A stretch of 42,514 nucleotides of DNA from Escherichia phage vB_EcoP_PAS7. Positions 2,781 to 42,514 of the stretch are shown piece after piece. Made by a program: the position numbers and the translations under genes. Under the pieces are notes generated by a model that was given only the letters and a program-made list of their open reading frames with translations, searched no databases and was not told the DNA's origin. Every line of letters begins with the position of its first letter. Position 1 is the first letter of the stretch. The stretch lies in the sequence record OQ921331.1; one strand, given 5' to 3'.

Positions 2781-2948
2781 ATGCACAATATTTCTAACCC
2801 TGAAGAAATGAAGGATCTGGCACGTCACCTTCTCGAAGCGCTGGATTATAGTACGGCTACTTCTGATGATGGTATGGTATGGTTAGAGAACTTTGAAGTA
2901 GGTATCTTGAGGGACTACATTGAGTATTTAGAAAATAAATTAAAATAA
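2781..2948 (+). CDS. hypothetical small acidic protein
   Basis: ORF track 2742..2948; ATG at 2781 is preceded by an AAGGAGG RBS. Confidence 0.45.
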   Translation: MHNISNPEEMKDLARHLLEALDYSTATSDDGMVWLENFEVGILRDYIEYLENKLK

Positions 2949-2951
2949 GTG

Positions 2952-2980
2952 TTGACGGTATGAGATGAGCAGCGTATAGT
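2952..2980. promoter_or_regulatory. sigma70-like early promoter P2 (TTGACG-17-TATAGT)
   Basis: -35 at 2952-2957, 17-nt spacer, -10 TATAGT at 2975-2980. Confidence 0.6.
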
Positions 2981-2986
2981 TAATCT

Positions 2987-3110
2987 CATCAAGACGTTAC
3001 CGAGAAACGATAAGTCGGCGCCCTTCTGAATCTTCTGGGTGGATAAAACGAAGATGAGCGGTTCCTCCCGTCCACGGATAATTCAGTGGGTCTGAGATGA
3101 AAGTAGTTTT
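2987..3110 (+). ncRNA. candidate structured RNA element, copy 2 of 3
   Basis: Starts at the predicted P2 transcription start. Hairpin stem ATCTTC 3030-3035 / GAAGAT 3050-3055 with loop TGGGTGGATAAAAC; downstream block CGGTTCCTCCCGTCCACGGATAATTCAGTG nearly identical to copy 3. Confidence 0.5.
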
Positions 3111-3158
3111 ACAAAGCCTTCTGCGGAGGGCTTCAATAAAACCACTAAGGAGATAAAG

Positions 3159-34488: not shown

Positions 34489-35697
34489 ATGGCTTACAGC
34501 TGGCAAGAACAACGCTTGCCAGCGGGAAGTCAGACCGTACCTGTAGAGATTCAGTACCTTGACCGCTCGTACATTCATTTGTACATCAACGAGGTTGAGG
34601 TTACTGACTTTACATGGGGTAGTGATACGCTTATCCGGTTTGACCAAACGCTGGCAGAAGAGTCTACTGTACTACTAGTTCGCCGCACCCCGCGCGAATA
34701 CCTGTACCTTATGTTCTCTGAGGGCGCTGCCTTTATTAAAGAGAACTTGGATACACAGAATCGTCAGTTCCTGCATTTAGCTCAGGAGCTTGTAGAAGGC
34801 CGTTCTGTTGACGGTTTCTTCGGTAACATTGATATGAACGGCTATCGGATTGTTAACCTGCGCGCAGGCGAGCAACCGGGGGATGCTGTTAATAAGGGCC
34901 AGTTGGATGCTGAAGCTTTGAGAATATCTGCGTTAGAGAACACATTCGTCTCTCAGACTAATTCTTATCCGTGGTATACTACTGCCACAGAACCTACAGA
35001 TATACTTACACCTCCGCTAGTCTTTAATAAAGCATCTGTGTATATTAATGGAGTATGTCAGACCCCAGGCTACAGTTATGAAGTAGTAGCTAATACTATT
35101 ATGCTGGCTGACCCTATTCCGGCAGGTACACACGTATTTGCACGTTTAGGTGAGGATGTTACGGACCTAGTACCTGACTATGCTACAGGCAGCCAACTAC
35201 AGGCAGTAGCCCAACGTACTACGCTAGTAGAAGAAGATATGCAGACTGTGCAAGCATCTATGAATAGTTTGCAATCTGACGTTACTTCTTTAGACACCTC
35301 TAAGGCGGCTAAAGGTGATGCAGGGCTTGCTCAGTTAGGAGCTACGGCTGTAGGGTCTGCTGTATTTAAAGCAGCTTCACAGGTAGATGCTAGAGCTGCT
35401 ATCGGCGCTAATAGCTCACTAAGCCAACAGGCCCAGCAGACTTTTAGAGATGCAGCCACTGGTTTTACTATTAAGATGGGAGTACTCCCAGCTTCGCTGA
35501 CTTCCCCTTACACGGTAACATTTGATATTCCGTTTACTGCCTTATTTCAAGTGCAGCTTACAGGCGGCCCTACTACTGGGGAAAGTGCTACAGGTAACGC
35601 GCAGGTTAGTGCACTAGCAGCATCCTCGTTTACCTGTAAAGCAGCAGCAGTAGCAGAGCTACAAGGCTGCTATTGGGTAGCGTATGGTACCAGTTAA
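34489..35697 (+). CDS. tail fiber/adaptor protein with T7 gp17-like N-terminal domain
   Basis: GYRIVNLRAGEQPGDAVNKGQLDAEA parallels T7 gp17 GRRIVNLANAVDDRDAVPFGQLKTM. Confidence 0.65.
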   Translation: MAYSWQEQRLPAGSQTVPVEIQYLDRSYIHLYINEVEVTDFTWGSDTLIRFDQTLAEESTVLLVRRTPREYLYLMFSEGAAFIKENLDTQNRQFLHLAQELVEGRSVDGFFGNIDMNGYRIVNLRAGEQPGDAVNKGQLDAEALRISALENTFVSQTNSYPWYTTATEPTDILTPPLVFNKASVYINGVCQTPGYSYEVVANTIMLADPIPAGTHVFARLGEDVTDLVPDYATGSQLQAVAQRTTLVEEDMQTVQASMNSLQSDVTSLDTSKAAKGDAGLAQLGATAVGSAVFKAASQVDARAAIGANSSLSQQAQQTFRDAATGFTIKMGVLPASLTSPYTVTFDIPFTALFQVQLTGGPTTGESATGNAQVSALAASSFTCKAAAVAELQGCYWVAYGTS

Positions 35698-36021: not shown

Positions 36022-37845
36022 GTGATTAGTCCTACTACATTAAACCGATTGAAACTAATATCTCAACGCACTACTGTAATGAACGACAATCCCCGCGGCA
36101 TTCCCAAGGACCAGCGCGAGGAAGTTGCGCTAATGATGGCTGTCACTCTAAAGGACTTCCGAGAGTTCGCATACTTAGGTATGAAGTTCCTCGGCTTTGA
36201 CCTTACGGAGATGCAGCGCGATATAGCTGACTTCATGCAGCACGGTCCGCGTAAGCGCATGGTGGCCGCACAGCGTGGCGAGGCTAAGTCTACACTCGCA
36301 GCTCTCTATGCAGTCTGGCGCCTGATTCAGGACCAGAGCACGCGTATTCTTATTGTATCCGGTGGTGAGAAGCAGGCATCTGAAGTAGCTACGCTTGTTA
36401 TCCGTATGATTGAAACGTGGCCTTTACTGTGCTACCTCAAGGCTGATAGTACTCGCGGTGACCGTACCTCTTATGAGGGTTACGATGTTCACTGCGACCT
36501 GAAGCCTTTGGATAAATCTGCCAGCATCGCGTGCGTAGGTATTACCGCACAGCTTCAGGGTAAGCGTGCTGACCTGCTAATCCCAGATGATATTGAGACT
36601 ACTAAGAACGGCTTAACGCAGACTATGCGTGAGCAGTTGCTTAGCATCTCTAAAGACTTTGCAGCAATCTGTACGCACGGTGATACCTTGTATCTTGGCA
36701 CGCCTCAGACTAAGGACAGTATCTACAAGACGCTTACGGGTCGTGGCTTCGAGGTTCGTGTATGGCCCGGTCGTATCCCTAATCAGGAGATGCGCGAGCG
36801 TTACGGAGAAACCCTAGCCCCGTATATTCAAACCCTCATCGACGCAGGGTACAAAGAGACAGGCTTCGGGTTAGATGGTACGTTAGGTGAATGCACCGAT
36901 AAAGGACGCTATAACGAGGAAGCCTTGATTGAGAAGGAACTGGACTTCGGCCCAGAAGGGTTCCAATTACAGTATATGCTCGACACAACCATGTCCGATG
37001 CACTGCGTACCAAGATTAAACTCAGTGACGCTTTGATTTACACTGGCTCGCATGATGCAGCGCCTGACCGACTGAACTACATGGCTGATAAGCGCTATCT
37101 CTACGGAGAGGAACATGAGGGTATTCGAGGTCAGCAGTTGTATGTGCCGAGTCACGTAGGTGAGCACATGCTCAACTATAAGCACAAGCTGCTGGTACTT
37201 GACCCTGCTGGTAACGGTGGTGATGAAGTATCCTTTGCAGCTGGTGGTGCAGTCAGCTCTTACATCCATCTCTTTAGTGTAGGTGGTTTGCAAGGCGGGC
37301 TTAGCACAGAGAACGTAGATACCTTAATTGACCTAGCGGTCGAGATGGGTATTACTGATATCTTCGTCGAGCGTAACATGGGTCACGGCACGGTAGAATC
37401 TTTGATTATAAACCGTCTACGTGAACGTAGTATGCCCGGCATTGGTGTCAGGGGCGGTTATAACACGTCTCAGAAAGAGAAACGTATCATTGATACTATC
37501 TCCCCTGTTACGCGTCGTCACCGCTTTGTAGTGCACGCTAGGGCGCTGGAAGACGATATCAAGTACTGTATGCAGTACAGTCGTGATAAGCGCTGGCTTT
37601 ACAGTGCGTTCCAGCAGTTATCCGGTATTACTTATGACCGTGGTAGCCTGGCGAAGGATGACCGGGCAGACGCTATTAGTATGCTCGTAGCTGAACTGAA
37701 CTCGCACCTCGTAGAGGATGAGAAGCAGGCAGCAGAGAAGGACCAGCTTAAGAAGGCGTTAGACTTTATGGATAACCCTATGGGCTGGAAGAAGTCAATG
37801 GTACAGAAGCGCAAGCGCGGTGCAAGCGCACGTATCGGTTATTAA
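36022..37845 (+). CDS. terminase large subunit
   Basis: 607 aa; position and size as T7 gp19; starts at GTG 36022, alternative ATG at 36079. Confidence 0.65.
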   Translation: MISPTTLNRLKLISQRTTVMNDNPRGIPKDQREEVALMMAVTLKDFREFAYLGMKFLGFDLTEMQRDIADFMQHGPRKRMVAAQRGEAKSTLAALYAVWRLIQDQSTRILIVSGGEKQASEVATLVIRMIETWPLLCYLKADSTRGDRTSYEGYDVHCDLKPLDKSASIACVGITAQLQGKRADLLIPDDIETTKNGLTQTMREQLLSISKDFAAICTHGDTLYLGTPQTKDSIYKTLTGRGFEVRVWPGRIPNQEMRERYGETLAPYIQTLIDAGYKETGFGLDGTLGECTDKGRYNEEALIEKELDFGPEGFQLQYMLDTTMSDALRTKIKLSDALIYTGSHDAAPDRLNYMADKRYLYGEEHEGIRGQQLYVPSHVGEHMLNYKHKLLVLDPAGNGGDEVSFAAGGAVSSYIHLFSVGGLQGGLSTENVDTLIDLAVEMGITDIFVERNMGHGTVESLIINRLRERSMPGIGVRGGYNTSQKEKRIIDTISPVTRRHRFVVHARALEDDIKYCMQYSRDKRWLYSAFQQLSGITYDRGSLAKDDRADAISMLVAELNSHLVEDEKQAAEKDQLKKALDFMDNPMGWKKSMVQKRKRGASARIGY

Positions 37846-37862
37846 CTATAGGAGAAGCACAC

Positions 37863-38045
37863 ATGGCAATTGCAGCAGCAACTTTGGCACAGAAGACTGA
37901 ACTTCAACGTCAACTGAATATTCTGGCTAAGGACATTTACCAGATTCTTACCCAGCCTTTGGATGCAGTGTCAGTAGGCCCGACCTTTGATGCTAAGATT
38001 CCGGCACTAGAAGCAGCTATCGCAGCTGTTAAAGCAGCAGCATAA
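37863..38045 (+). CDS. hypothetical small protein
   Basis: ORF track, 60 aa; GGAGAAG RBS. Confidence 0.4.
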   Translation: MAIAAATLAQKTELQRQLNILAKDIYQILTQPLDAVSVGPTFDAKIPALEAAIAAVKAAA

Positions 38046-38443
38046 TGATTCGTGCAGCCGCTGGGTTAGTACTCGTTACGGCGCTTACAGGATGCTCAGC
38101 GGCTTCTGCACTATCAGGATTAGTCGGCACTAAGCCAGACCTGACAGTGCAGGCTGGGGCTGAGAATACTAAGCAGACCGTAGGTTTGAACAGTAGATCC
38201 GACTCCAGCACGGATACAACAATCAAAGATTCCAATGTAGGTACTCTAGACACTTCTACAAAGAAGCAGTCAGTTACTACTGGAACTATCAATACAGAGC
38301 GTGTACAGGTTGTTAATAATGACAGTACAAGCATTATACTAGCAGGGTTGGCGGGTGCAGCGGTTCCAATCGCAATCCTCATCATTATCCTGCTTTTCCG
38401 CAAGCTCGGAAGGAAGGGTGACGTAGATGAGTCTACCAATTAG
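38045..38443 (+). CDS. unimolecular spanin (u-spanin)-like lysis protein
   Basis: N-terminal lipoprotein signal with lipobox LTGC (MIRAAAGLVLVTALTGCSAAS), Ser/Thr-rich middle, C-terminal TM helix IILAGLAGAAVPIAILIIILLF; same architecture as T1 gp11. Confidence 0.55.
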   Translation: MIRAAAGLVLVTALTGCSAASALSGLVGTKPDLTVQAGAENTKQTVGLNSRSDSSTDTTIKDSNVGTLDTSTKKQSVTTGTINTERVQVVNNDSTSIILAGLAGAAVPIAILIIILLFRKLGRKGDVDESTN

Positions 38444-38675
38444 CGGGGATACAATCACCCGCGTAGGAGCGCAGGCAGCGGCCGCCACTATGGGTGGTGG
38501 ATGGGTGGCTGATATCATGTCTTGGCAATGGGGCACTATCTCTTTTATTGTAGGTACTGTAGTAGCGGTACTAACGTTTCTTTGGAATGCCTACTATAAA
38601 CGCAAGGAGTACTTGCTGAAAGAGAAAGCATTACAGAAAGGCTTAGAGTACTACGAGTTCAAGAATAAACCATAA
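38427..38675 (+). CDS. holin (pinholin-like, two predicted TM segments)
   Basis: 82 aa; weakly hydrophobic first segment and TM GTISFIVGTVVAVLTFLW, then a charged C-terminus; adjacent to spanin and SAR endolysin. Confidence 0.45.
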   Translation: MSLPISGDTITRVGAQAAAATMGGGWVADIMSWQWGTISFIVGTVVAVLTFLWNAYYKRKEYLLKEKALQKGLEYYEFKNKP

Positions 38676-38685
38676 GGGTTATATT

Positions 38686-38931
38686 ATGACTAGGTACGGA
38701 GCAGGTGCACACACTTTTCGATTTGGGAGTGGTGCACGGGACAGGATTGTAGTACCAGATGCAGGTACTACTGTAACGGTAGAGTACTGGTCTGGTACAG
38801 AGTGGGTTATGGACGTAGATTCACCAATTGACTCTCCAGCTACACTTTATACGCGGCTTGTACGTGTCCGCTTAACTGCGGATGGCGGCTTCTCCTTTGA
38901 TGTAGTGGAGGCTATTGATGAGTCTAATTAA
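38686..38931 (+). CDS. hypothetical protein
   Basis: ORF track, 81 aa; overlaps the start of the collagen-like gene. Confidence 0.4.
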
Positions 38932-40018
38932 TCAGCGCCGTCGTATCTCTAAGGGTGGCAATACCGGCGGTGGTGGCGGTACTGGGCCACAAGGACCTGT
39001 AGGGGAGCAAGGCCCTGTAGGGCCTATGGGTCCGGCAGGTGCAGATGGCCCAGTAGGTCCAGTAGGTCCAGTCGGTCCACAAGGTCCTCAAGGCCCAGCT
39101 GGGCCTCAGGGTCCGCAAGGTCTGCAAGGTCCTGAAGGTGTTCAAGGAGCTAAGGGAGATAAGGGCGATACTGGTCCAGCGGGGCCAGCGGGTCTCAACT
39201 TCCGTGCTGCTTGGGTTCCGGGCTTGACCTATGCTTTACAGGATTCAGTAGCCTACAATGGTAGTACTTGGTTTGCTAATTCGGCTATTGAGGCAGACGT
39301 AACGCCCGGTACTGATCCTCGTTGGGTGCTGCTTGCTATGCAGGGTACTAAGGGGGATACCGGACCTACAGGTCCACAGGGGCCTCGCGGAGTGCAAGGC
39401 GTGCCCGGAGACGTAGGCCCTCAGGGTCCGCAGGGTATAGCAGGCCCGCAGGGTATTCGCGGTCCTCAAGGTGATACCGGCGAGCAAGGTCCCGCAGGGC
39501 CACAGGGCGCTAGAGGTATACAGGGAGTTAAAGGCGATAAAGGCGACAAGGGTGATAAAGGGGATACAGGCGCTACTGGACCCCAAGGACCCGCAGGTCA
39601 AAATAATACCAATAATCCAGTATATACTACACAACTTGCAGTATCTACTAGCTATTCGGCAATAGCTATTCCTAATAACCCCGGAGTATCCTTAACGGTT
39701 AGACGTGTCAGCAATAATATTGAGTATTCATTTACTGGTAACTCCATTGCGGGTAGGTACTTCGACGTAGAATTAGTTAACTTCCCCTCAGCGGACGTAG
39801 TCAAAAGGTATCAATCTAACCATACAATAGCAGGTACTAGCCGCTATGTAGTAGGCGACCCCGCAGGCTACACTGGTACAGGATACAAGAAGATTCAAAT
39901 TACTGCAAGGGATTGGGGAGATAAGAATATTATTATCATAGACCTGTTCCACCTACAACGAGCTGGGGATGCTAACTTCAACATCGCCATTAGGATTGAG
40001 ACCTTTAAACTTCCTTAA
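38918..40018 (+). CDS. collagen-like (Gly-X-Y repeat) protein with C-terminal globular domain, possible fiber or receptor-binding protein
   Basis: Two G-X-Y blocks ([23 protein letters not shown]... and [19 protein letters not shown]...[13 protein letters not shown]); ATG at 38918 with a GGAGG RBS. Confidence 0.6.
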
Positions 40019-40029
40019 GTTGAGGCACT

Positions 40030-40569
40030 ATGCTATCGAATAAAATCAAGGCAGCGCTGGCAGGGTCTTCCCTGCTGGGCGCGAGCCTATTCGCAGTAAT
40101 TGAAAGCAACGAAGGCTTATCCCTCACTGCTTACAAAGATTCCGCAGGCGTACCTACCATCTGCTATGGCGAGACTAAAGGCGTTAAAATGGGCCAAAAG
40201 GCTACGCTGTCGCAGTGTCAGGCCATGCTGATACAGTCAGCAGGGGAACACGCTAAGGCTCTTGACGGGCTTCCTATGCATCTTACGGACGTACAGCTTC
40301 TGGGAGCCATAGACCTAACCTATAACATTGGGGTATCAGGTTTCAAGAACAGCACCGTGAAGCGCAAGCTAATGCAAGGGGATAATAAAGGTGCTGCTCA
40401 GGCCGTACTAGCGTGGCGCTACATCACTGTTAAGGGTAAGAAGTACGATTGCTCAGTTAAGGCCAACAAGGTCTGCTACGGCCTCTGGAAGCGCCGTGTT
40501 TGGGAATCCCAAGCTATTGGCAATGAATTTAAATCAATGCAGGCAGCAGTAGCTGCTATGCCTAAATAA
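40030..40569 (+). CDS. signal-arrest-release (SAR) endolysin, T4-lysozyme-like muramidase
   Basis: N-terminal SAR-like segment IKAALAGSSLLGASLFAVI; catalytic-region pattern ESNEGLSLTAYKDSAGVPTICYGET matches the Glu-Asp-Thr arrangement of GH24 lysozymes. Confidence 0.65.
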   Translation: MLSNKIKAALAGSSLLGASLFAVIESNEGLSLTAYKDSAGVPTICYGETKGVKMGQKATLSQCQAMLIQSAGEHAKALDGLPMHLTDVQLLGAIDLTYNIGVSGFKNSTVKRKLMQGDNKGAAQAVLAWRYITVKGKKYDCSVKANKVCYGLWKRRVWESQAIGNEFKSMQAAVAAMPK

Positions 40570-40578
40570 GGAAACAGC

Positions 40579-42021
40579 ATGTCACTTGTAAGTCTAGTAC
40601 GCGACACTACTCAAGATATCAAGCACAAGGCAGATATTCTTCTTGATTATCTGGACCGCCAGGAGCAAGGCTTAGGTCAGGTTCAGGAGTTTGTAGAATC
40701 CTCCACTATTCTGAATATCCCTTCTTTGCGTAGCTTACTACCTTCCTCCGAGGGTCAGGTGGTGCAAGTACTAAGTAGTTACAGCACCGCCGCTACACAA
40801 CTCCATTTAGGTGGTGGGCAGTTCCAAGCTGTTAATAACCTGCAAGCAGAGCCAGACGATGGCGGTATTGTAGTGCACAGTACGCATCCTACGCTGGTAT
40901 GGAAACGCATTAACTTCACTGCTTATGATATGCAGTTCTGGGGTGTAGTAGCTGATGCAAGTACTGATAACGCAGCAGCCATTACCCGCGCTACTCAGTA
41001 CGCCCGGCGTAACCGAATTGTACTGGAAGCCCCCGCAGGCAGTATTCATACCAGTGAAATGGTCCCCCTGTACGATAACATGGGTATACGTGGGCATGGT
41101 CGCGCCGAGAATACAGTATTCTACAAGACCACTAACAACGGGTTCAACTACACCAAGAACGGGGTAACTGTCCTTACTGTAGATGCGTTGGCTGGGTTTG
41201 TGCCTAAAGAGTGGGACCTCGCTGATTACGAGATAAAGAGTTTCTGTGTGCATGCACAGCTTATTGGCTGTATGTTCCGCAGACTTGGCCTCAGTGCTGA
41301 GAACGTAGCCACAACTCGCCCACAGTACGGCCTGCATATCGGCAAGGCAGCTACAGCGGTCGTGCGTCAGTGTACATTCGAAGGTGGTTACATTGGCATT
41401 AAGGGCTATAACGTATTCAGTAGCGTCTTCGAGAGTGTAGCAGCGGTGCAGTTCAATGGCTATGGCTATGCTGGTGTAAGTATCAGCGACTACCGTAACA
41501 GCACTTTATACAACTCAGGTACATCACTGGACATGCGTATCGTGCAGGTACGTGGATACCAGTTCGGCTTTGAACTGGACCGCCTGCAGTACAGTACCCT
41601 TATCGATTGTACAGCAGAAGAAATCGTCCCTATGGCTGGGGAAACCACAAGCTACGCCTTCAGTATGTACGACCCGTTCTGTATCACAATGCTGAACTGT
41701 GCTACCGAGTTCGTTAAGGGTGGACAGATTCGTGTACTAGGTTTCGCTAACCCTAGCTTCCGACCGCAGCTTAAAGTTACCGGATTCATTGCTATAGACC
41801 AGCAGAACCCGGCTGCGCTTACTCCCATCTACCTTGTCGACAACGGGGGTACTACAGGTATGAACGTTGTTATAGAGGCATCTGAACTATCCAGAAACAC
41901 TGCTCTGAGCAATAACGGGCAGCCGAGTGTACAAGGTGCAGGAGCTAAGGTAATCCTGATTGGATGCTCTGGAGAGGACTGGGTAGCTTCTGGTAGTGGG
42001 GTATTCACTAGACTCGCTTAA
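40579..42021 (+). CDS. tail spike protein, putative capsule/polysaccharide depolymerase (pectate-lyase-like beta-helix)
   Basis: 480 aa; GVVADASTDNAAAITRATQYARRNRIVLEAPAGSIHTSEM resembles the Pectate_lyase_3 N-terminal signature; no T7 gp17-type anchor domain; last gene of the genome. Confidence 0.5.
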   Translation: MSLVSLVRDTTQDIKHKADILLDYLDRQEQGLGQVQEFVESSTILNIPSLRSLLPSSEGQVVQVLSSYSTAATQLHLGGGQFQAVNNLQAEPDDGGIVVHSTHPTLVWKRINFTAYDMQFWGVVADASTDNAAAITRATQYARRNRIVLEAPAGSIHTSEMVPLYDNMGIRGHGRAENTVFYKTTNNGFNYTKNGVTVLTVDALAGFVPKEWDLADYEIKSFCVHAQLIGCMFRRLGLSAENVATTRPQYGLHIGKAATAVVRQCTFEGGYIGIKGYNVFSSVFESVAAVQFNGYGYAGVSISDYRNSTLYNSGTSLDMRIVQVRGYQFGFELDRLQYSTLIDCTAEEIVPMAGETTSYAFSMYDPFCITMLNCATEFVKGGQIRVLGFANPSFRPQLKVTGFIAIDQQNPAALTPIYLVDNGGTTGMNVVIEASELSRNTALSNNGQPSVQGAGAKVILIGCSGEDWVASGSGVFTRLA

Positions 42022-42514
42022 GCTCAGTACTGGCATTATACAAGGCATTACAGGGAATTACAGGGTGCGTGTGTAAACATGCACCTTGGATTTATTATAC
42101 TTACGCGAGGCCCTCCCTCACCCGACCAACGCCCTCTTCCCCCCATAGGGTGGTCTGCTGGGACGTTTCTAGGTCAATAGGGGTGCCGTAGTGCCTATCG
42201 CAGCGGTGTACAGGCCTGTATCTGGGCCTATGCAGCGGTAGTAATGTGGCAGTAACGGCAGTAACAGGGCAAGCTCTGGTGCTCTGTGCTTCTCTTTGTA
42301 GGGGCGCAGGAGAGCTGGCGCTTGCCTATTTTGTTCTTCCTATAGTACGCCTGTGCTCTCCCTTGTTCTCTCCTTGATGTGTCACTGCGCTAGCTCTGCT
42401 TAGCAATGGCTTGCTTCTTTTGTTCTACTGTGCTAGGCTTGGTTTTAATGCAGTGCGCTCTTTAATAATCAGGTAGGTCATATACTATTAATACATTTGC
42501 TTGGTGAGGACACT
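42022..42514. other. non-coding right-end region, candidate genome terminus or packaging region
   Basis: No ORF of 60 aa or more; C-rich tract CCCTCCCTCACCCGACCAACGCCCTCTTCCCCCC; short direct repeats GCAGTAAC. Confidence 0.4.
42064..42095 (+). terminator. putative terminator hairpin after the tail spike gene
   Basis: GGTGCGTG...CATGCACC imperfect stem followed by TTGGATTTATTAT. Confidence 0.35.

Follow-up and report, generated by a model that had tools for sequence, protein, structure and literature searches.

In Escherichia phage vB_EcoP_PAS7 (PAS7; sequence record OQ921331.1), the holin and endolysin genes lie 1.35 kb apart with two unrelated genes between them, whereas they are adjacent and overlap in the published cassette of KP34-like phages and in the closest coliphage relatives. 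What are the two intervening genes, and do they have anything to do with lysis? PAS7 is a lytic, O103-specific podophage that has been proposed to typify a new Slopekvirinae genus, Cepavirus, and thus belongs to the KP34-like phages of the Autographivirales (PMC11522302). We analyzed a stretch of 42,514 nucleotides (nt), referred to as the window, in which the plus strand holds every long open reading frame (ORF). A preliminary description of positions 37863-40569 had read this interval as a lysis cassette of unimolecular spanin (u-spanin), pinholin-like holin and signal-anchor-release (SAR) endolysin, interrupted by a small ORF (here orf81) and a collagen-like gene (here the fibre gene). All ORFs named there are present on the plus strand where it had placed them, and both the lysis gene identities and the interruption stand. 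Its first ORF, however, is no lysis gene, and the small ORF and the collagen-like gene form a conserved two-gene module rather than an incidental insertion. The interval is a canonical KP34-type late-gene block of decoration protein, u-spanin, pinholin and SAR endolysin, followed by the tailspike (Table 1). Its best explanation, and probably the correct one, is that such a block carries, in the PAS7 sublineage, a non-lysis 'dock plus fibre' virion accessory module.

Table 1. Features in and next to the PAS7 late-gene interval, with positions in the window
Feature	Position	Strand	Basis
Capsid decoration protein, 60 aa, helical, HRP29/Buco gp48 type	37863..38045	+	phmmer against PDB; PHROG 7375
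Predicted u-spanin, T1 gp11 family, 132 aa	38045..38443	+	lipobox, C-terminal transmembrane segment, phrog_1804, tblastn
Holin, P21 S (pinholin) family, 82 aa	38427..38675	+	PF04971, phrog_20; 17-nt overlap with spanin 3' end
1.39-kb insertion relative to closest sequenced relatives	38658..40047		blastn breakpoints, junction alignments
orf81, 81-aa beta-sandwich protein, phrog_8454; proposed fibre docking/adaptor subunit	38686..38931	+	PHROG, AlphaFold2
Collagen-like fibre, 366 aa (367 aa from 38915), starts MSLINQ	38918..40018	+	Pfam Collagen, phrog_5073, triplet runs
Predicted SAR endolysin, GH24 lysozyme, P21 R type, 179 aa	40030..40569	+	Pfam, phmmer against 3hde_A, motif, N-terminal segment
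Tailspike, O103 (second receptor-binding protein)	40579..42021	+	phrog_38237 7.8e-157, profile positions 236-686; PMC11522302

We compared the locus with the nearest records of the phage collection, Escherichia phages P64441 and ECO104 4-5-2, which share ~78-80% nucleotide identity with PAS7 over alignable parts. In blastn alignments of positions 37801-40700 to both relatives (L001 and L002), similarity ends at 38657 and resumes at 40048, and the relatives have only 16 nt between the matching points. The interruption is thus real and no annotation artefact. It is also unusual, as the preliminary description had held, given that P64441, ECO104 4-5-2 and a third phage, IK_ECO1, all have contiguous, overlapping holin and endolysin genes. 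In P64441 and ECO104 4-5-2 the endolysin ATG is located within the 3' end of the holin gene (…TACTATGAGCATAAGCAACAAGGTTAA…), creating a 23-nt overlap, of which the insert replaces ~16 nt. Diverged copies of this ancestral overlap are kept at both ends of the insert. The left copy (38652-38675) ends the holin, with its internal ATG changed to ACG, and the right copy (40030-40052) starts the endolysin, which begins with MLSNKIK in PAS7 and with MSISNKVK in P64441. The PAS7 endolysin gene has its own GAGG ribosome-binding site, as read from the sequence, and the insertion uncouples the holin and endolysin genes in the PAS7 sublineage. No promoter-like or terminator-like site in the interval exceeded the expectation from shuffled sequences, and the inserted genes should thus share the late-gene transcript.

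We searched the flanks of the insert for inverted and direct repeats that could represent a target-site duplication or mobile-element ends, and found none beyond the diverged duplicate of the overlap. The 10-mer GATGAGTCTA occurs only twice in the window, at 38426-38435 and 38917-38926, in both cases at an overlapping gene junction (spanin/holin and orf81/fibre, respectively). At both sites the upstream protein ends in DES(T)N and the downstream protein starts with MSL, using the same codons. The repeat could be a coincidence, the result of convergence or a recombination footprint; an origin of the insert by microhomology via this 10-mer is unsupported, as its geometry does not yield the observed insertion site.

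The orf81 product belongs to a family of no assigned function (PHROG 8454) and has no Pfam match. Its AlphaFold2 model, calculated from a 15-sequence alignment, is a nine-stranded beta-sandwich with a mean predicted local distance difference test score (pLDDT) of 95.1. The family is small, with 17 clusters in a 90% database and 74 representatives at E <= 0.001 among 1.84 billion. The fibre protein consists of a 13-residue N-terminal peptide, 27 Gly-X-Y triplets, a CBM5/12-like knob (residues 99-135), another 29 triplets and a C-terminal beta domain of 138 residues. It matches Pfam Collagen with E = 8.4e-23, and the knob matches CBM_5_12 at 1e-3, under the cut-off. The match to phrog_5073 'tail fiber' (8.8e-66) covers profile positions 181-515 only; the PAS7 fibre thus lacks the N-terminal attachment region of that family. 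These ~180 residues contain a DUF1737 in the Rogunavirinae phage Phagiculus, and PAS7 has just the 13-residue peptide ahead of its collagen stalk. Closely similar versions of the C-terminal 138 residues (86-88% identity) occur in coliphage fibre proteins, both of Rogunavirinae siphophages (MM01, Phagiculus, UDF157lw) and of Vequintavirinae myophages (W70, A73), with the 'tail fiber-like protein' of the T4-like phage JS10 as a more distant relative. This domain is found in 16 phage records by tblastn and in one fragment from the large protein search. Sequence searches with orf81 and the fibre C-terminus against the PDB returned no meaningful match, and a hydropathy scan of both proteins found no transmembrane or signal segment.

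The fibre ATG is located within the 3' end of orf81, where the genes overlap by 14 nt. We considered a programmed frameshift joining the two proteins and rejected it, since the phase of the fibre ATG relative to the orf81 stop varies among phages (14-nt overlap in PAS7, ATGA or TAATG elsewhere). The junction is one of ordinary termination-reinitiation coupling.

We next asked with which genes orf81 is associated in other phages. Split homologues were inspected at 13 loci besides PAS7, falling into 11 groups: four of KP34-like contigs (L010, L011-13, L014 and L019/20) and seven marine siphophage loci (Shewanella phage 3/49, Vibrio phages 1.236.O and 1.177.O, and contigs L015, L016, L021 and L022). 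At most of them the next gene overlaps or abuts the orf81 stop. In the KP34-like groups this gene encodes a protein with an (M/V)SLIN-type start; it is truncated by the contig end in L010 and L011, has 186 residues in L014, and in L019/L020 has 377 residues and begins with VSLINRRKAK. Among the siphophage loci, the next proteins begin with MSLINVGR in Shewanella 3/49 (272 residues), MSLIDRDKGGG in Vibrio 1.236.O (433 residues), MSLIGINGGSGGG in Vibrio 1.177.O (941 residues), MSLIGG in L016 (443 residues), MGLIDNGGG in L022 (578 residues) and MSILSD in L015, an Ig-like protein of 114 residues. The exception to the MSLI pattern is L021 (MIYSMINQ). The orf81 homologue overlaps the start of the gene of a partner beginning with MSLI, MSIL or MGLI at six siphophage loci. 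These partners, of 114-941 residues, are otherwise unrelated, as expected of exchangeable distal domains on a conserved attachment peptide.

The four KP34-like groups have holin, orf81, (M/V)SLIN-fibre and endolysin genes at the same site as PAS7. Their orf81 proteins are 49-79% identical to that of PAS7, and their fibres differ in stalk length and in the C-terminal domain. The L014 fibre has a short collagen stalk and a different C-terminal domain of 120 residues. In L019/20, orf81 is only 49% identical and the fibre ends in a JS10-type domain; the spanin and endolysin there are 77-80% identical to those of PAS7. PAS7 and its metagenome relative L011 share 92-100% of their nucleotides in the spanin and holin genes and 63-78% right after the holin stop. 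The synonymous divergence (dS) of orf81 is 1.38, compared with 0.12 for the adjacent holin and spanin genes, and its ratio of nonsynonymous to synonymous divergence (dN/dS) is 0.10-0.23 (0.10 where dS is 1.38). The sharp drop in identity at the holin stop indicates cassette exchange. Judged from these sequence comparisons, the locus behaves like a receptor-binding-protein locus, with purifying selection and alleles swapped by recombination at fixed boundaries. As a separate observation, the L014 homologue (2867-3115) reads ACG at the position of the ATG start of PAS7 and L010, where the gene caller reported only a 52-residue fragment; possible explanations are an error in sequencing, a start codon of non-canonical type and inactivation of the gene.

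Two representatives of the family (P0060 and P0077) have the orf81 domain fused to the N-terminus of an SGNH/GDSL esterase, an N-terminal position being typical of virion-anchor domains. On the P22-like metagenome contig L017 (8001-10198), where this fusion occurs, the orf81-like domain forms the N-terminal part of a 538-residue SGNH esterase. The fusion gene has the coat gene upstream and a Phage_stabilise (PF11134) gene downstream, and is itself followed by a gene for a 177-residue protein starting with MSLIFDYSG. Taken together, the co-occurrence, the coupled translation and the fusions speak for a putative physical interaction between orf81 and the MSLI peptide.

These findings suggest a model in which the inserted module would be a portable 'dock plus fibre' virion accessory without a function in lysis. 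The 81-residue beta-sandwich protein would act as the docking subunit, to which the downstream protein would attach via its short conserved N-terminal peptide (MSLI..., then a Gly-rich linker). The fibre would extend as a trimeric collagen stalk that bears a carbohydrate-binding-like knob and ends in an exchangeable binding domain, and may represent an accessory adhesin at the head or neck, analogous to Hoc, phi29 gp8.5 or SPP1 gp12. The capsid-displayed adhesins T4 Hoc, T5 pb10, phi29 gp8.5 and SPP1 gp12 are non-essential appendages, often encoded beside the capsid gene, in which a capsid-binding part carries an Ig, coiled-coil or collagen projection with a presumed role in carbohydrate binding (PMC7602432). 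SPP1 gp12, a collagen-like trimer located on hexamer centres, provides a precedent for a collagen-like capsid protein (PMC7602432). All four are single polypeptides with their own capsid-binding domain, whereas PAS7 would use a separate 81-residue protein of a different, uncharacterized fold.

Gene order in other phages weakly favours attachment close to the head or neck over attachment to the tail. At five of the seven marine siphophage loci, the major capsid gene is followed by orf81 either directly or after up to three small genes (the other two, L021 and L022, are not long enough to show neighbours), and in the three loci with an annotated head-tail adaptor orf81 lies upstream of the adaptor gene. 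In the Rogunavirinae (Phagiculus, L005 2689-5417), a homologous collagen protein of 513 residues with an N-terminal DUF1737 is encoded between a Phage_cement protein and the major head protein, and its annotation as 'tail fiber' may be wrong. The JS10 homologue of the fibre C-terminal domain adjoins hoc, and in the PAS7 clade the capsid accessory genes gp47 and gp48 are found just upstream of the lysis genes.

Several points weigh against an accessory adhesin at the head. The proposed contact between orf81 and the MSLI peptide is deduced from co-occurrence, coupling and fusion, and the description of PAS7 reports no proteomics and mentions neither inserted gene (PMC11522302). Homologues of orf81 accompany four unrelated families of capsid proteins (SU10_MCP, Gp13-like, P22 coat and T7-like), which is awkward for a specific capsid binder, and the orf81 fold does not resemble the known decoration and head-fibre folds to which it was compared (the beta-tulip of gpD and gp8.5, the Ig-like fold of Hoc and pb10, the OB fold of Dec, and Soc). 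The Vequintavirinae homologue of the fibre is annotated as a side tail fibre, and the PHROG family is labelled 'tail fiber'. In L017, the fusion gene sits among what we take as neck and tail-hub genes, the 152-residue upstream ORF being, at a guess, gp4-like.

The serious alternative to the head-proximal adhesin is that the collagen-like protein is a third receptor-binding protein (RBP) of the tail, mounted either next to the tailspike or on the T7-like tail fibre encoded at 34489-35697, with orf81 as a tail-side adaptor or assembly factor. The tail-fibre label is shared by phrog_5073 and many related families, the Vequintavirinae homologue is encoded within a tail-fibre cluster, the L017 fusion has its apparent neck and tail-hub neighbours, and in PAS7 the fibre gene is only one gene away from the tailspike gene. 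In addition, the second RBP of KP34virus docks via a seven-residue N-terminal peptide, MALxxLV (PMC6872550), and the PAS7 fibre also begins with M-S-L. We tested the N-termini for membership in this heptapeptide family: the tailspike (MSLVSLV) fits, and the spikes of the relatives (MALVQNI and others) fit better than the fibre (MSLINQR), which has no hydrophobic Leu-Val at positions 6-7. This argues against a simple competition of the fibre for the docking site of the tailspike. Moreover, the siphophage and P22-like loci with an orf81-MSLI pair show no T7-type anchor fibre in the stretches read, and five of the seven siphophage pairs are found in the head module, upstream of the head-tail adaptor in loci with such an annotation and far from tape-measure and baseplate genes. 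Taken together, we consider a third tail RBP rather unlikely.

Similarities to well-described tail fibres concern the architecture of the protein. The trimeric side tail fibres EPclA-D of E. coli prophages resemble the PAS7 fibre in having a collagen stalk, a small globular interruption and a C-terminal trimerizing or binding cap, but they contain PfN and PfC domains, for neither of which the PAS7 fibre has a Pfam match (PMC3368898). Both EPclA-D and the KP34virus RBPs share with PAS7 the modular exchange of distal domains (PMC3368898, PMC6872550). The anchor-branch RBPs of KP34virus likewise attach by a very short N-terminal peptide, unlike that of the PAS7 fibre, and their docking partner is a T4 gp10-like domain of the anchor fibre, whereas the putative partner in PAS7 is a free 81-residue protein (PMC6872550).

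A role as non-structural cargo (a moron), either as a lysis accessory or as an exported factor, could be suspected from the position of the genes between holin and endolysin, with which they would be co-transcribed. We regard it as very improbable: XepA and YomS rank only 14th and 19th among generic beta-sandwich matches to the orf81 fold, and signal peptides and transmembrane segments are absent from both inserted proteins. The homologues in five of the seven siphophage loci and in L017 are part of morphogenesis modules, with no lysis gene in the fetched stretch, the fibre C-terminal domain is 86-88% identical to annotated virion fibres, and the lysis genes around the insertion are themselves flanked by virion genes. 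A third possibility is that accidental recombination left the insertion behind and that it is now decaying without a function, as the ACG in place of the orf81 start in L014 and the missing N-terminal ~180 residues of the PHROG family might suggest. This can hardly be right: PAS7 and L019/20 have both ORFs intact, as do L010-13 in their assembled parts, orf81 evolves at low dN/dS despite saturated synonymous divergence, lineages with no more than 49% identity in orf81 still keep the arrangement, and a pLDDT of 95 marks the orf81 model as confident.

The interruption is the sole new element of the locus: a lineage-specific, stably maintained and recombinationally exchangeable two-gene fibre module that was overlooked in the description of PAS7. 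We infer its structural role from sequence. Holin and endolysin genes that overlap and are tightly coupled can be separated and the split arrangement can still persist across a clade, which bears on the automated annotation of lysis cassettes and on the engineering of these phages. Members of the uncharacterized small family phrog_8454 consistently have variable, surface-type proteins as partners, the link being the conserved N-terminal peptide of these proteins. Tentatively, orf81 and the MSLI peptide could form a previously unrecognized, portable two-component docking system that makes head or neck appendages interchangeable among marine siphophages and P22-like and KP34-like podophages, with the PAS7 cassette providing a second, capsid-borne adhesin besides the O103 tailspike. 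In this case, the appendages mounted on it would include collagen fibres, Ig domains, SGNH esterases and large beta-rich proteins, and phrog_8454 would offer a compact handle for the display of foreign domains on phage particles. PAS7, which has been studied as an O103-specific phage with one tailspike, would then carry a second host-interaction determinant that its description missed.

The lysis genes around the module are a further member of a known cassette type and contain nothing new. In such a cassette, the pinholin is expected to depolarize the inner membrane, whereupon the tethered SAR endolysin is released, refolds and degrades peptidoglycan; the u-spanin, which would span from a lipid anchor in the outer membrane to a C-terminal helix embedded in the inner one, is then expected to fuse or disrupt both membranes. 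The preliminary description had recognized the u-spanin from a lipobox and a C-terminal transmembrane segment combined in one polypeptide, and we could confirm both. A motif scan, rather than LipoP or SignalP, located the lipobox LTGC at residues 14-17 (with Cys17 as the lipidation site candidate), behind a basic, hydrophobic N-region. The C-terminal hydrophobic segment reaches a Kyte-Doolittle maximum of 2.83 (19-residue windows across residues 93-125) and is followed by a basic tail, RKLGRK. The protein matches phrog_1804 'Rz-like spanin' at 6.8e-40, and tblastn with it matched 1026 phage records, many annotated as U-spanin. It is 63-64% identical to spanins of Klebsiella KP34-like phages, 58.3% to that of Enterobacter phage phiKDA1 over 87% of its length, 45.5% to that of pSf-2 over 55%, and 41-48% to u-spanins of T1-like Drexlerviridae over residues 17-96. 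The published T1 gp11 u-spanin family, delimited at 40% identity over 40% of length, lists KP34, F19, NTUH-K2044-K1-1, phiKDA1, LIMElight and pSf-2 (Kongari et al. 2018, PMC6139136), and the PAS7 protein lies within these limits.

A lipobox scan of all ORFs on both strands of the window revealed no other credible lipoprotein or Rz1-like ORF, the remaining matches being short out-of-frame ORFs within large genes. The spanin is therefore the only plausible lipoprotein in the window, and no hidden Rz/Rz1 pair, which would have spoken against a unimolecular spanin, is present. We thus assign it as a predicted unimolecular spanin of the T1 gp11 family. It shares with T1 gp11 the N-terminal lipobox and cysteine, the C-terminal transmembrane helix, a similar length and family homology; it differs in being first rather than last in the lysis cassette, in belonging to a podophage rather than a siphophage, and in being known from sequence.

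With 32.5 bits over residues 15-65 (E = 8.3e-08), the holin exceeds the gathering cut-off of 26 set for the P21 S family in Pfam (PF04971 Phage_holin_2_1), and it matches phrog_20 holin at 4.7e-18. A strong hydrophobic helix spans approximately residues 35-56 (Kyte-Doolittle maximum 1.86). The first segment (residues 13-31) is weak and Ala/Gly-rich, with a maximum of 0.91 and 53% Gly, Ala and Ser, below a simple hydropathy threshold. Two points thus speak against a pinholin: only the second segment passes this threshold, so that the assignment relies on family membership, and KP34 holins have been counted as having a single transmembrane domain (PMC4411677). The pinholin call made previously nevertheless seems reasonable, considering the Pfam score and a SAR endolysin as partner. 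Compared with S21 of phage P21, the PAS7 holin is of low identity, and its first transmembrane segment is only weakly hydrophobic by Kyte-Doolittle.

The endolysin matches Pfam Phage_lysozyme PF00959 at 1.8e-26 and the P21 lysozyme (3hde_A) at 6.3e-16 in a phmmer search. The alignment to 3HDE starts at residue 5, and the SAR segment is thus covered by homology. This N-terminal segment is weakly hydrophobic (Kyte-Doolittle maximum 1.74, windows across residues 5-27). Its core, AALAGSSLLGASLFAVI (residues 8-24), consists of 59% Gly, Ala and Ser and is preceded by Lys-5 and Lys-7. Directly after it comes the catalytic motif E-x8-D-x5-T, contained in NEGLSLTAYKDSAGVPT and covered by the alignment to 3HDE. 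The PAS7 enzyme thus aligns with R21 of phage P21 from the SAR segment through the E-D-T catalytic triad, at low identity, and the protein called a SAR endolysin in the preliminary description is, by homology, most simply an R21-type SAR endolysin.

U-spanin, (pin)holin and SAR endolysin in this order are a genus character of the 'Kp34likevirus' (Eriksson et al. 2015, PMC4411677), and the spanin-holin-endolysin type of cassette was published for KP34-like phages in 2015 and 2018 (PMC4411677, PMC6139136). PAS7 matches this composition and gene order, and its cassette likewise follows the terminase and precedes the second RBP. The ORF that opens the interval (37863-38045) does not belong to the lysis genes; its product is a capsid decoration protein. 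In phmmer searches of the PDB, its product matches 8eld_H 'Gp48' over its full length (E = 2.8e-18, residues 1-59 of 60) and, again over its full length, 23sf_G 'decoration protein gp5' (E = 1.2e-16). According to a preprint that cites HRP29 work, gp47 and gp48 of Buco and HRP29 form a dense decoration on the capsid surface (bioRxiv 10.64898/2026.05.18.726046); we draw their roles from this source and from PDB molecule names. Small helical dimers of the gp48-like kind clamp the capsomers of the related podophages PhiM1 and Ar-KM. With a decoration gene upstream and the tailspike gene downstream, the lysis genes of the clade were thus already embedded between virion genes.

A homologue of gp47 ('paw' or 'spike' type) is encoded just 5' of the gp48-like gene in ECO104 4-5-2 (L002 4504-4833) and IK_ECO1 (L003 4670-5047). 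No such homologue was found in PAS7, where the gap between terminase and decoration genes is 37845-37863, in contig L014, or in the 10.8 kb examined of P64441. PAS7 and L014 thus have the orf81 module and no gp47, ECO104 4-5-2 and IK_ECO1 have gp47 and no module, and P64441 has neither in its 10.8 kb. There may be a loose trade-off between the gp47-like gene and the orf81 module, the anti-correlation being weak. On the divergent KP34-like contig L020, the gene upstream of the gp48-like gene (1525-2715) encodes 396 residues that combine a helical N-terminal part with a GDSL/SGNH esterase domain, and its product may be a capsid-displayed esterase.

Downstream of the interval, the 480-residue tailspike was taken as the RBP in the description of PAS7, which mentions neither the spanin nor the collagen-like protein (PMC11522302). 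A terminator-like hairpin of 12 pairs with a T-rich tail (42061-42088) is located just 3' of the tailspike gene. The last ~400 nt of the window (42100-42514), in which the longest ORF has at most 43 codons, probably represent the genome end.

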